A stretch of DNA of 64,000 nt from Amoebidium appalachense (lineage: Eukaryota > Protista > Ichthyosporea). The stretch spans positions 3,817,292 to 3,881,291 of the forward strand of contig CAVNZM010000012.1 in assembly GCA_963693365.1 (NCBI GenBank), in the 5' to 3' direction. The translations under genes were made by a program, and so were the position numbers. The first letter of the stretch is position 1; each line of letters starts with the position of its first letter. Below, one piece after another: positions 9,901-33,900 of this stretch. The notes under the pieces are model-generated. The model was not told where the DNA came from. It did no database searches and saw only the letters and a list, made by a program, of their open reading frames with translations.

Positions 9901-12900
9901 TCCCCACACCTCCACCTGTCTTTCCGTGCCTCTTCCTGCCTCCCACCAGCACCGGTTTCTTCCTCACCTTCCTTTTCACCCATAGGTTTTTCACTGGCAC
10001 GCCGCAAAGCGCTCGCACAGCTGACAATCTGGTTGGATTATGTTCAAGCACTGTTAACGAGACTCACGCTGCTTGTATGATTACAGGGAGGAGGATGGTG
10101 CCGGGGGCAGCACGGGCAAGCAGGACATGGGGCATGACATTGTGGAGCTGTTGGATAACTTCCTGGCTGTGGCAAAGGTGGATGTGGTTGCCTCTTTCAA
10201 TTTCATTAGTTTATTTGTGTTTATTTGTTCTGGTTGTGAAAGAAATGAGTTGGGAAAGGTGAATGAAAAGGCAACTGCAAGGAGCACTGGTGGCCGCGGT
10301 GAACCAGAGAGGGGGAGGGGGGTGGTGGTGGGGGGAGGGGGGGGGGAGGGTGGGGGAGATTTGTGGGGAGGGGGGGGGGGGGGGGGGATTGAGAAAGACA
10401 GACAGGGAGCAGTGTGACACAAACACACAGGCACAGACACTCCCCTCCCTCCCCACACGCCGCCCCGGGGGAGGGGGGGGGGGGCGTGGGAAAAGAGAGG
10501 CAAATAGAGAAAGACAGGGACCGGGGGGGGGGGGGAACAAACACCAGCACACACACACACGTGTACTTACCCTCCCACCCACCCGCCCACACACACATAC
10601 ACCACGTGCACACGCCTCGCATGAGCGGACCTGACATGCACATGAGTCGATGTACTTTTGCTTGTTCATGTTGTGTGGTGGTGGTGGTGGTATCAAATAA
10701 ATAAAGACAAATGTTTCACTTTAGCGCATGAGAGGACATAATCTTGCGTAAAGTGCGTAGGTCGTCCATGGGGTTCTTTAGGCCGATTTATAGGCCCTTT
10801 CGGGTCAGGCCATAATACTGTTTGGTACTCATCTCGCCATTCATAAAGCGCAAATCGCTTTCGGGTGTGACCCGACGCGGATTGAACCCCCTTAAATGCA
10901 TGAAGTGGAACTGACGAATGGACGGCAGAGTGTGTCACTGGGAGAGGGCGGGGTTTCCCACTTGGTGGATGTGATGGTGACGGTGGTCAAGCAAACGGTG
11001 GAGGCCAACACGAGGGTGTGTGTGTGTGTGTGTGTGTGTGTGTGTGTGTGTGTGTGTGTGTGTGTGTGTGTGTGTGTGTGTGTGTGTGTGTGGGCGGGTG
11101 GGTGGGTGTGTTTGTCTGTGCCTGTCTGTCTATGTGTGTGTGTGTGTGTATGCCTGTGCGCGCACGCGTGTGTGTGGGTGTGTGGGCGTTTGTGCACCTG
11201 TCTGTGCCTGTCTCTGTGTGTGTACATGTTCCTTGGCGTGCCGGCATCCGATGCGGATGCTTCTGTGAAGCATGTGTCTGTGCACGTGTTGCGAGCTCGT
11301 GCTCGCACTGCGCACATGGGGACCTGGACTATTCTTGTGAGCCGTCAACTGGGTGTGTTATTGCTCCTCCCTGGTGGTGGCAGGAGCAATCAGGTTTTGT
11401 TCGTTGGGTTAGATGGAATTTTTCCTACTTTCTATACACCGAACAAAAGAAATAAACACGCAAACTAGCAATAAGAAATAGGGAAATGGATCAGAAACGG
11501 AAAAGTAGAAACGAGAGAAAACATGAACTGAATGCATTAGGCATTTCATTGCAAATAATAACCGCGTGTATCTTGCAGGTTTGAGAGTCAGATGCAGAGT
11601 CTTGCATTGGATGTTCTTTCAACGGTGGTATCCGACAAGCATGTGGTTATGGAGCATGGCTGCATGATGGTAAACATACACCCCCCCCCCCCCCCCCCCC
11701 CCCTCCCCGCGCCTTCGCGTGCCGTCCGGCCCTCCTCCCTCCCCTGTTCCGTCTCTTACAACTCCTTGTTCGGCCATGTGAAATCCCCCCCCCCCCCCCC
11801 CCCCCCCTGCTGCTTGCTCCCCTCCGTCACCCATTTTCCGGCGTCACAACCATTGCTTCCTTGCTTGGACCCCTCCCCCCTCTTCCCTCCGTACATCTCC
11901 TACTCTGCCCATCTCTCCCTTCCTTTCCTTTCCCGCATATTTTGTTCTCACTCATCTCGTTTCCATGTATCTCTTTTTTCTTCTCCCCCAGTACATGTAT
12001 TTTAGCAGCTCACATTTTGGTGGCTACAGGTGCTTGAAGCATTGCAGCCTGCACTGCAGCTGACTGCATTCCAGACCCAACCCTCCCCCGTGTCCAGGCC
12101 TCAGTACACTCTGGCTAAGATCGTGCTGGATGCTGTCAGGTGCTATACTTTCCACTCCTTTCCACTTTCTTCTACCCCCTTGGATCCAATTCCAACCCCC
12201 CCCCCCTCCCCCCCCCCCCCCCCCCCCCCCCGCGCACACACACACACCCACCCCTTCCTCCCCCCGATTATGATGCATGGTCTTTGTATATATGTGCTCT
12301 GCAGACTTCAAATTGTGTTGTTCGTCGTGAATGTGTATTCCTCCTCTATAACACATTCTACCCCCCCCCCCCCCCCCCCCCCCCCCCCCCCCCCCCCACG
12401 GGTGACCTACTCATGTTCAAGTGAAACAGTATCTGAGTTGGGTTTCGTTAACGAGGGGAATAGGTCGAAACTCGGGTACTGTGGATGACGTGGGCCCCCC
12501 CTGAGGATGGGCTCTGCTTATTATGCATACTCTTTATGTATGGCTTGCATTCTGCATCGTGTTATCCGTTTGTTCTTGTGTACTTCGCACTTTTTGACGC
12601 ATTCAAACCCCCCCCCCCCCCCCCCCCCCCCCCCCCCTGGGGTGCCCACCTCTCCCCTCCCCTCCCCTCCCCTCCCCTACCCCTTCAGCTCCTTTCCGAT
12701 CCCTGTCGCCTTCTTCCACCCCCCTTAAGTGGCAACCCATACCCACCAACACCATCACCCAATCCTCCACCACTTCTTTTACCTTTTTTCTGCATATTTT
12801 GGTTGCTTGTCCCGGCTTCCAGTAGCCAGCAAAGAGGAATAGATTTTGTCATCTTGAAGTACTTTTCAAGTTGCGCCGACCCGTGACACCCAATAAGGAA

Positions 12901-30900: not shown

Positions 30901-33900
30901 AGGCATCAAGATTGTTGGGCTTCGGTAGTGTACTTAACACGGTATATGGCCGCTGATCATAAGTTGCATGTGTTAATGTTGTTCTGGGGGCGCGGAAGGG
31001 GGGGGGGGGGGGGGGGGGGGTTCAAGTAGCGGTTGTACGGGGATAGAGGTTGGGCTTGTACACTTGCCCGGGGGGAAGGGGAGGGAAGACGGTACGGAAT
31101 GTTTTGCGGAAGGATGAAGCAATGGTACTCAGGGTATGGGGCGCAGGCACACACCCCCCTCAAGGACCTCACTGCCCCACGTGTCCGAACAACCCCGTCT
31201 GCTTCGGCTGCTGGCTCCACCGGGTGAGTGCACACACAGGCTTTCAGGGGCTATTGTTTGTTGTCTCTCCCCCCGCCCCCTCCCCCCACAACACACACAC
31301 ACACACACACACACAACACACAACACACACACACACACAAACGCCCGCATTCCGTCCCTGCACACCTTTAAAACACTGCCACGTGCACCATTCTCCCCCC
31401 CCCCCCCCCCCCCCCCCCCCCGGTTCTCCCTTCTGTTTCAAGTCGCTGTTCCTACTTTTGTCTGCCAAAATGCCTTTTGACGTGTTCAAATTACCCCCCC
31501 CCCCCCCTGCGCCGCCGCTGCCGGGCAAGCCACCAAACCACCACCACCACCCCCATCTTTTTTGTTAGGAAACTGCATGCGGCTAAGAACTGGTTGCATG
31601 TGTGGGTAAAACGTGACACCACAATTTTTCGTTCGTGTATGTTGAGCTAGTATGGTGTGTGGTGTGATCTGTGGGTGTGGAGAGCCGGTTAGCCGTTTTT
31701 CATCCGTTTGGGAGGGGGGAGAGGGGTAAGAACAAGTCACAAAGTAAGAAATACACATTCACGACGTAAATCAAGACTCAATGTGGGCAGAGCATATTCA
31801 CAAAGAAAATGCATCATAAGCAACCCCTATTCTCGGGGGAGCCGCTGGGGGAGGGGGGGGGGGGGGGGGGGGGGGGGGGGATTCTCACTGACGATGAAAC
31901 TGCACAGAGCCAAATCGGCAGCCAACCCGTCCTCGGCCCAACGGGGTTCCACAACTGATACACCAGTCAGGAGAGGTATTACTCCTACTATCCCCCCGCC
32001 CCCCCCTCTCCGGAATCTCATGCGCAGGTGCTCAAATATTCGTTGTTCCGGTGGATGCGTAGGTGTTGCTCACAACTCTAATTAATAACGAGCAAGCACC
32101 GGTAACCTACACAGGATGTGTCGTATTCGGGAATTTTTTTTCATGGCTTTTCCTCCCATGTGACAACCGTTCAATCAACGTTTCTTTTTCCTTCTTCTTC
32201 TTCTCCTTCTTCTTCTTCTCTCTCTCTCTCCCTTTTTATTTGTTTATTTTTTTATTTTTATTTTTTTTGTTATGGCGGCTTTTTCACCTATGTGACAACC
32301 CACCAATGAACGTCCTTTGTGCAGGTGGGGAGTCAGCCAAGCAGACACCGTCCAGCACAGCCCCCTCTCCCATGCCATCGTCGCTGCCTATCCGTGTCTA
32401 TGCCGAAGAGGACCAGGAAAATGGTATTCTACCCCCACTCCAATACACACATACACCAACCACACCCACCAATACACAAACATTTGCATCCCTACGCACG
32501 ACCTCCTTCCTCCCCCCCCCCCCCCCCCCCCCCCCCAAATATGCCTCATACACTCTATAGCACGCTCTTAACCACCACACCCACCTCTTCTCGCAGCACA
32601 AGACCCACACACACACACACACACACACACACACACACACACACACACACACACACACACACACACACACACACACACACACACACACACACACACACAC
32701 ACACACACACACACACACACACACACACACACACAGAGCCAACGGCGGCTTAGCTATAGGTGCTGCTGCTCATTCCCCTCCGTTCACGAGTACACAATAG
32801 ACATTGCAATGCTTTTTCCATGTCTTTTTTGGCTGCCTGCCCCCCAGTGCACTCCTCACCCCACAACCCTGCCCCACCTCACGGAACACCACAAGCACAC
32901 ACACACACACAAACAACAATCTTCTTGTCTAGCAACAACAACAACCCCAAACCCCCCCCCCCCCCCCCCCCCCCCCCCTCTTTGATCAAGACGGGTTGGC
33001 CCTCCCAAGTTCAGTTGATGCTGCTGTCTGAGTTGGAGAGTCGTATATACGCGGGCTCAGGCGCCGAAACTCAGACACAATTGATGACTTGGGCTCTGAG
33101 AGTCTGCTTATGACGCATACTGTGCGCATTACTAATGTTGCTTACTTGAATGTTTGCCTTTGCATGTGTCCTGCACCATGCTTCTCATCGTGTATGTGTA
33201 CTACTTACCGTGTTCCGCATTCTACCCCCCCCCCCCCCCCCCCCCTCCACACACACACACACACACACACACACAGACCCCTCCACCCCCCGCACACACA
33301 CACAACCGCCCAAGTATTCTCTCCTTGTTTGTTAGTTATTAACTATTTAACTATCTATTTTTTCTTCTTCTTCTTTTTTTTCTTTCCGATTTCCATATAG
33401 CGGCACCCACCTCCACGCCAGCGCCAAGGCGGATACGAGAGGTTCGGGACACAGAGGATAATTCTAACGTGCTGGTCCTGCAGCCACCAAACGAACCGTA
33501 CTCCCCCCCCCCCCCCCCCCCCCCCCCCCCCCCCCCCCCCACACACACACACACACACACCACCACCAACAACTCGATCAACACTCTGCCACCTCGGCCA
33601 CAACAACAACAAATATGCACACACACAAAGAAGAGGAAGAGAAAGGAGCAAGAGAAGGAGAGCAAGCTAAACCAAGTCCCCCCCCCCCCCCCCCCCCCCC
33701 CCCCCCCCCCCAAAAAAAAAAAAAAAAAAAAAAAAAAGAAAAAAGAAAAAAACAAACAAACAAACAAACAAAAAGCCAAAAACACACACAGATGCACGCG
33801 CCCGCACGCATACACACGCTTGTCCCACAGCCTGTTTTCCACCTTCACTCTCTTTTTCTAAGCATTGTCCGTTTGGCCCACCTCCGTGAACGGTTGAACC

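Follow-up and report, generated by a model that had tools for sequence, protein, structure and literature searches.

The window analysed is a stretch of 64,000 nt of nuclear DNA (contig CAVNZM010000012.1, positions 3,817,292–3,881,291, forward strand). It carries the gene for condensin-2 complex subunit D3 and, in the introns of this gene, four long copies of a dispersed repeat, termed the element below (Table 1). The copies lie between tblastn matches to condensin-2 D3 exons. All are in sense orientation; as stated in the preliminary description of this DNA, they end in CATTC(A/T)A followed by C. For one condensin-2 D3 exon the best relative is 86% identical and labelled 'Ihof', presumably the ichthyosporean Ichthyophonus hoferi; the next is 66% identical. 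An ichthyosporean is therefore the likely host. The repeat is almost certainly a retroelement. By its sequence it is probably a non-autonomous Penelope-like element of the Naiad/Chlamys clade, with a predicted self-cleaving RNA of rewired hammerhead type.

Unit, copies and target of the element

Unit about 450 nt long, composed of about 443 nt and a linker of A1–3 C6–9. Direct joints of position 25711 back to 25269 through this linker are present in contigs of all four public runs (4, 10, 2 and 1 contigs). The unit is therefore longer than the 240 bp first proposed and forms head-to-tail arrays, the third copy begins at 25269 and not at 25456, and 25052–25711 is one tandem insertion of a truncated and a full unit. 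The two units of the tandem differ at 4 positions.

A profile built from the four long copies gives ten copies in the window at E < 1e-3 and one further weak match, so the family is not limited to the four copies first listed. Zero matches are obtained in the reversed window. Nine copies are on the plus strand and one on the minus strand. All ten reach model positions 431–444, with starts spread from 1 to 400. Eight of the ten are followed by at least 13 C in 22 nt, versus 8.0% (+) and 5.0% (−) of all positions; poly-C itself is frequent in the window (91 runs of at least 12 C). Sequence 25269–25711 is matched by 5,274 contigs of run X1 and 11,758 of run X2. The copy at 12.4 kb is matched by 5,816 and 6,177 contigs of runs X2 and X3, by 2 of X16 and by none of X20. 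Contig counts of this size, although not copy numbers, point to a very large family. A further 244 and 12 contigs with the element (25269–25711) come from two runs guessed to be RNA. One contig of run X2 has a telomere-type-like repeat in place of element sequence near 12468–12478.

Non-coding, with a longest ATG frame of 62 aa, and without terminal inverted repeats. 5' truncation, partial tandem or head-to-tail insertion and insertion in simple repeats, here (C)n, are all present, as in Penelope-like elements. Tandem monomers of 150–450 nt with one hammerhead each characterise non-long-terminal-repeat (non-LTR) retrozymes; in the element the distance from site to site is 451 nt, one unit of the window tandem being defective. 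The earlier suggestion of a retrozyme-like mobile element is supported. A short interspersed nuclear element (SINE), also suggested, is not supported: no tRNA is found in the window, and thus no tRNA-like head of a tRNA-derived SINE. Nor is a true structured LTR, given variable 5' ends and head-to-tail joints; the repeat behaves like a Penelope-type pseudo-LTR unit. A longer autonomous element, with the copies as its terminal repeat (pseudo-LTR), is a very improbable reading. Some contigs do carry other sequence upstream of 25430 and 25417, and the copies are 3'-biased, but direct 3'-to-5' joints of the 443-nt unit occur in four of four runs and the unit has no long reading frame.

Table 1. 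Features of the element and its host gene, in window positions
Feature	Position	Strand	Basis or remark
Condensin-2 complex subunit D3 gene, ~30 exons	6985..34140	+	Four main copies in its introns
Full-length unit, sole copy with complete ribozyme frame	25269..25711	+	Joints; profile match over model 1–443
5'-truncated upstream unit of tandem; without stem II strand, G12 changed to A	25052..25261	+	98% identical to 25503–25711; C7 linker
Second-subfamily copy; full core, stems I/II/III, I/II helix; truncated before Px and hp1	12398..12607	+	
Decayed copy; CUGAGGA block deleted; stem II A-U changed to G-C plus one mismatch	32979..33224	+	
3' poly-C, 29 nt	25712..25740	+	
Poly-C, 5' flank of tandem	25030..25051	+	
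Short 3' fragment, tandem directly upstream of 12.4-kb copy	12264..12360	+	E 6e-18
Short 3' fragment	18377..18448	+	E 5.7e-11
Old 3' fragment, degenerate C block	31736..31843	−	E 1e-20
Short 3' fragment	45019..45107	+	E 4.6e-15
Old 3' fragment, degenerate C block	46151..46260	+	E 3.8e-19
Short 3' fragment	50953..50997	+	E 3.5e-9
Px 5' strand: 25439–25446 with 25592–25599; CCC 25448–25450 with GGG 25586–25588	25439..25450	+	Minimum-energy fold
hp1, 9-bp hairpin, second palindrome 25460–25467 at tip	25452..25474	+	Minimum-energy fold
Stem II 5' strand, G10.1 = 25476, pairs with 25538–25543	25476..25481	+	5/6 pairs
I/II interaction helix 5' strand, pairs with 25565–25571	25482..25488	+	7/7 pairs in three copies
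S block: stem III strand, U16.1 = 25511, U17 = 25512 (predicted cut after), stem I strand 25513–25516	25503..25516	+	
Stem I–stem II linker with 10-nt palindrome 25520–25529	25517..25537	+	
G block: stem II strand, C11.1 = 25543, GAAA 25544–25547, stem III strand	25538..25555	+	
C block: stem I strand 25574–25577, CUGAGGA 25578–25584, extra U	25574..25585	+	
Px 3' strand	25586..25599	+	

The predicted ribozyme

All conserved hammerhead bases are present in the 12.4-kb and 25.5-kb copies: C3 U4 G5 A6 N7 G8 A9, G12 A13 A14, the pair A15.1–U16.1, and H17. This core is absent from the preliminary description, whose long hairpin provides its frame. The base of the hairpin loop has U-U on its 5' side and GAAA on its 3' side, with CUGAGGA 30 nt further on. 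Position 17 is U, a base also found there in Penelope-type hammerheads of File S2. The UH site (S), GAAA (G) and CUGAGGA (C) follow each other in the order S-G-C, a non-circular order; Rfam types I, II and III, which are circularly permuted, uncrossed three-way junctions, do not accommodate it, and the hammerhead is not the type I of non-LTR retrozymes. The Rfam search proposed with the preliminary description finds nothing that reaches the gathering score anywhere in the window; in 24900–25900 even a limit of E 10 yields no match. Four sub-threshold matches lie in 12300–12700, the best with 14.2 bits against a gathering score of 34. HDV-like and twister ribozymes and Helitrons were rejected by eye, their motifs being absent.

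Two descriptors were used, both written after the sequence had been seen. The any-order hammerhead descriptor finds two sites in 128 kb (both strands), both S-G-C and both in the element. Shuffles of the two copies give any permutation in 8 of 20,000 and 3 of 20,000 cases, and in 0 of 20,000 when stem III has at least 7 pairs. With the four-block descriptor the same two intact copies are again the only matches: none of 20,000 shuffles of either copy fits, nor does any of 247 pattern-matched control loci. The CUGAGGA heptamer is confined, in the window, to copies of the element. Of 124 columns, 34 distinguish the two subfamilies, and none of these is among the 16 core columns (p 0.004, columns chosen post hoc). 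Changes at C3 and U4 amount to at most 1.8% of depth among contigs on the 12.4-kb copy. Stem I has 3–4 bp, stem II 5–6 bp and stem III 9–13 bp, with double changes in all three (two lineages only); in stem I, A-U is replaced by G-C between copies. Very probably, then, the repeat carries a hammerhead-derived fold. Self-cleavage in vivo, predicted after U25512, is fairly likely. The earlier suggestion of a new ribozyme is supported as to the ribozyme, but not as to novelty of chemistry: the predicted catalyst is a rewired hammerhead.

In four rows from two lineages, and with a structure chosen from the same sequences, 95.4% of cells across the 33 pairs are paired, and five pairs carry changes in both strands. 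As many double changes arise in 2 of 500 shuffles and in none of six slid controls. A sixth, in stem I, is uncounted because of an alignment gap. Selection on RNA structure, as proposed earlier, is supported. The helices CCCAAGT/ACTTGGG, TCAGTTG/CAATTGA and GTCTGAG/CTCAGAC are present as described, but the copy at 25052 lacks the outer 5' strands. The 12.4-kb copy, said to keep its pairing, does so through double changes but not in the middle helix, where 3 of 7 pairs are broken. The 'second hairpin' of that description is the minimum-energy alternative that buries the catalytic strand, and is not likely a functional helix.

Folding energy is ordinary for the whole unit (z −0.63), the 12.4-kb copy (z −0.56) and the 33-kb copy (z 0.02). 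Region 25438–25600 alone stands out (z −3.06 on the plus strand, −3.32 on the minus strand). In favour of a DNA transposon, Helitron-like or miniature inverted-repeat transposable element selected for single-stranded DNA hairpins are the hairpins themselves and the good folding of 25438–25600 on both strands. G-U pairs nevertheless favour plus-strand RNA (−39.7 versus −24.1 kcal/mol in the 12.4-kb copy), terminal inverted repeats are lacking, the 3' end is fixed while 5' ends vary, and a hammerhead core is present. A DNA element is largely refuted by the 5' truncation and the core, and is the least probable of the explanations considered.

The best stem II uses a strand of six bases on the 5' side of the cleavage site, located 30 nt before stem III. 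It pairs at 6/6 positions in the 12.4-kb copy and at 5/6 in each of the 25.5-kb and 33-kb copies, with changes on both sides in three pairs. A third variant, with 6/6 pairs, occurs in the second-subfamily loose-end consensus (two unlinked rows, agreement 0.54–0.75). Compared with the best pairing that uses bases after CUGAGGA, the upstream helix has an advantage of 3.1 and 4.5 kcal/mol. It was first noticed in the sub-threshold Rfam match, a type I match (E 2.4); a first model, with a contiguous 2-bp stem II, was replaced once this match indicated a better partner upstream. With stem II placed upstream, the outer helix of the preliminary description becomes the I/II interaction helix: one of its strands continues the stem II strand at its 3' end, the other precedes the stem I strand at its 5' end, and on each side six bases separate it from the core. 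Two of its pairs vary, one on both sides and one on a single side. Px is formed by the bases following CUGAGGA-U and an upstream strand. The minimum-energy fold itself contains Px, its outer 8 pairs with probabilities of 0.89–1.0, and hp1, which stops one base before G10.1. Since stem II is best formed by the upstream strand, the catalytic strand is, with good probability, split by two helices between A9 and G10.1, and the core would be a five-way junction. From 5' to 3', the parts of the proposed fold are Px, hp1, stem II strand, I/II strand, S block, palindromic linker, G block, I/II strand, stem I strand, CUGAGGA and the second Px strand. Px would stack on hp1, keeping A9 and G10.1 adjacent.

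The nearest published form is the type SGC hammerhead, non-circular, validated in vitro and obtained from metatranscriptomes (Eckert et al. 2023, PMC10085705). Statements on published systems refer, here and below, to the available parts of the sources cited. None of the type SGC RNAs of PMC10085705 comes from the genome of a known organism; the element is in nuclear DNA. Like type SGC (HRIMA-1 and variants), the element has the order S-G-C, an extra U after A9, C11.1 before GAAA and a helix linking the far ends of stems I and II. Unlike in type SGC, its predicted stem II strand is upstream of the S block, two helices away from CUGANGA, while the block scheme of PMC10085705 assumes that the stem II strand is not separable from CUGANGA. 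None of the six published permutations has the split-core wiring. The published search pattern (linker of at most 8 nt, spacer of at most 15 nt, CUGAUGAUG, at least 3 stem II pairs beside the C block) does not describe the element, in which the linker has 18–21 nt, the stem III–stem I spacer 18 nt and N7 is G; with linker, spacer and N7 outside its limits, the pattern could not find it.

An ordinary type SGC hammerhead, with G10.1 = G25586 after CUGAGGA-U and an upstream strand that merely extends stem II or inhibits the ribozyme, is an unlikely alternative. CUGAGGA-U-G and C-GAAA fit the published SGC core except at N7, two contiguous pairs are possible in both subfamilies, and a 4-bp GGGC/GCUC helix could be the I/II interaction. 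A contiguous stem II next to CUGAGGA is limited to these two pairs: a G-G clash stands at the third, there is no double change and the helix is weaker than the covarying upstream one. The GGG already has a partner in Px. Three Naiad lineages with the same layout, described below, cannot form a contiguous stem II.

Related elements and proposed replication

Canonical hammerheads are reported to be missing from Naiad and from most Chlamys elements, some being marked 'HHR_core' or 'HHR_half_core' (Craig et al. 2021, PMC8557442). The same source describes (C)n as the target of Chlamys elements and head-to-tail insertion of the non-autonomous ones. In the sequences of that source the split-core layout is recognised by eye at the 3' end of eight Naiad consensus sequences from five animal lineages: a ctenophore family (part 8), Naiad-3_Chem, three Acropora families, one part-12 family and two Octopus families. 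One of the three Acropora families has two mismatches, and some family names are taken from file order. The shared order is Px, hp1, stem II strand, I/II strand, S, G, I/II strand, stem I, CUGANGA, Px. Stem sequences are unrelated to those of the element; linkers are of 1–6 nt and without palindrome. Stem II cannot be built from the bases after CUGANGA in Acropora, Naiad-3_Chem and the part-12 family; there, 5–8 of these bases pair with Px instead. At least 15 of 54 Naiad sequences, among the matches listed, have a split-core or type CSG end. No such ribozyme is seen by eye in two Clytia families, Naiad-1 and -2_Chem.

Two side observations concern the same sequences. Seven Naiad sequences, from six nematode families (two Pristionchus, three Nippostrongylus, Heligmosomoides) and one spider family (Stegodyphus), have by eye a complete type CSG hammerhead at their end, with differing stems; just two type CSG sequences were known before, from metagenomes. 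Naiad-1, -2 and -3_Chem have a common GC-rich motif just past the reading frame, non-hammerhead, which may be a structured RNA.

The element resembles Naiads in 5' truncation, tandem insertions and microsatellite targets. It differs from them, by fold comparison only, in the absence of a reading frame, the target (C)n and not (TA)n, the long palindromic linker and a host that is likely not an animal; likely non-animal host, (C)n target and long palindromic linker are what this locus adds. With non-autonomous Chlamys elements such as MRC1 it shares the (C)n target, head-to-tail insertion and non-coding character, but has a hammerhead core, no hammerhead being reported for them in PMC8557442. 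With non-LTR retrozymes, linked to Penelope-like elements (Cervera and de la Pena 2020, PMC7229834; bioRxiv 10.64898/2026.07.22.740005), it shares tandem monomers of 150–450 nt with one hammerhead each. Retrozymes have type I hammerheads, occur in animals and are shown experimentally to cut and circularise; the element has a different wiring, is known here from DNA sequence, and most of its copies are dispersed 3' fragments, several of them intronic. A strict pattern gives 0 relatives in metagenomes and 0 in viral contigs. Relaxed patterns give at least 119 and at least 128 stretches, and 0 of 247 among the matches listed fit the four-block descriptor. The literature, as incompletely covered, yielded no report of split-core wiring, nor of any Penelope-like element with a non-circular hammerhead.

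The linker palindromes of the preliminary description are both present, one in the 25.5-kb copy (Table 1) and a different one, also of 10 nt, at the equivalent place of the 12.4-kb copy (12445–12454). The kissing-loop dimerisation suggested earlier could be the main function, for example by letting two units complete each other's ribozyme, in view of two different palindromes at one place, their predicted dimers (−13.8 and −15.2 kcal/mol) and the further palindrome at the tip of hp1; weak retrozyme hammerheads perform better as dimers (PMC7229834). A short hairpin with a self-complementary tetraloop yields the same pattern, however, and the Naiad linkers of 1–6 nt have no palindrome. Dimerisation as the main function is thus extremely improbable. 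Because the Naiad versions have short linkers without a palindrome, any role of the palindrome would be at most accessory, and even such a role is doubtful.

Under the preferred reading, a non-autonomous Penelope-like element with a split-core hammerhead, a tandem transcript would be cut once per unit to give 451-nt monomers, which may be circularised as in retrozymes (PMC7229834). The endonuclease and reverse transcriptase of an autonomous partner, itself likely of the Naiad/Chlamys clade, would nick a poly-C/poly-G tract and prime on the C6–9 linker. Target-primed copying would run towards the 5' end and mostly stop early. Copying would use a religated circle or an uncut multimer, because the four long copies run past the cut and the tandem spans two sites in 660 nt. 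This locus would release no monomer itself, because just one unit is complete.

Several points weigh against this reading, in addition to the post hoc descriptors and the narrow basis of the covariation. No autonomous partner is found in the window, its only reverse transcriptase being a LINE-type (long interspersed nuclear element) frame that ends on (CA)n. The complete ribozyme is present in only one of the four long copies. None of the ten copies begins at the predicted cut, the nearest beginning 10 nt upstream, and contig depth has no step there. The sole run on record as RNA has zero contigs with the element (12.4-kb copy). A contiguous type SGC fold could also arise, as G25586–G25587 can pair before GAAA. 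The minimum-energy fold differs from the active one, whose strands cost 10.5 and 7.7 kcal/mol to set free before two pseudoknot stems are counted in, the loop costs of these stems being left out. The Naiad comparison was made by eye, not computed, on sequences found through twelve 8-base words. No such ribozyme is seen in the Chlamys rows examined, including the 3' ends of Chlamys-1 and -2_cRei, and Naiads are reported from animals only (PMC8557442).

Some of these points would suit a hammerhead-derived fold that is no longer an efficient cutter and would be retained as a signal by which the partner's reverse transcriptase recognises or packages the RNA. The active fold differs from the minimum-energy fold, copies extend through the cut site, and an intact copy is tolerated in sense within an intron of the condensin gene. 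All 16 core columns, on the other hand, are the same in both subfamilies, C3 and U4 hardly vary (see above), and the catalytic bases are not obviously needed for a binding signal. This explanation is unlikely, marginally more so than the ordinary type SGC hammerhead.

The broadest form of the split-core reading has about even chances: an active split-core hammerhead would be the ribozyme of the Naiad/Chlamys clade, either older than animals or crossed into a single-celled holozoan, and would drive a retrozyme-like circular RNA with thousands of copies. If so, it would represent a new hammerhead wiring, ruled out by the current block scheme, in which the A9–G10.1 link is replaceable by a junction; this would bear on ribozyme structure and design. 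The apparent lack of hammerheads in Naiads would be explained by search patterns blind to these orders. A non-circularly permuted hammerhead, in print almost solely from anonymous environmental sequence, would be placed in a nuclear repeat, in a host that is a culturable kind of eukaryote and with a precise predicted cut. The ribozyme, and likely its retroelement clade, would extend outside animals.

Other features of the window

Further traces resembling the element are present. A 125-nt tandem pair (51390–51514 and 51549–51671) lies between poly-C runs and is missed by the profile; its start is degenerate post-C-block sequence and its end is element-like, perhaps representing another subfamily. 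Tiny stretches like the 3' end of the element precede C runs at 54950–54980 and 44921–44975, with below-threshold or borderline significance. A second dispersed repeat of about 230 nt (56905–57141 and 58864–59081, 83% identical) is unrelated to the element and has no hammerhead match.

The LINE-type reverse transcriptase frame (61349–63523, −) has 724 codons (RVT_1, E 2e-28). A long (CA)n lies almost directly past its stop, and it possibly belongs to a (CA)n-targeting element. As partner of the element it was rejected, since it ends on (CA)n after the stop and has no 3' end in common with it. A Pfam scan of 27 window segments gives no frame with N-terminal GIY-YIG and reverse transcriptase. 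An intronless UNC-93-like transporter gene (38089–39534, +) is situated amid an intron-rich region. Its best named matches are from fungi and alveolates, with no animal among them, which may point to a retrogene or a transfer.

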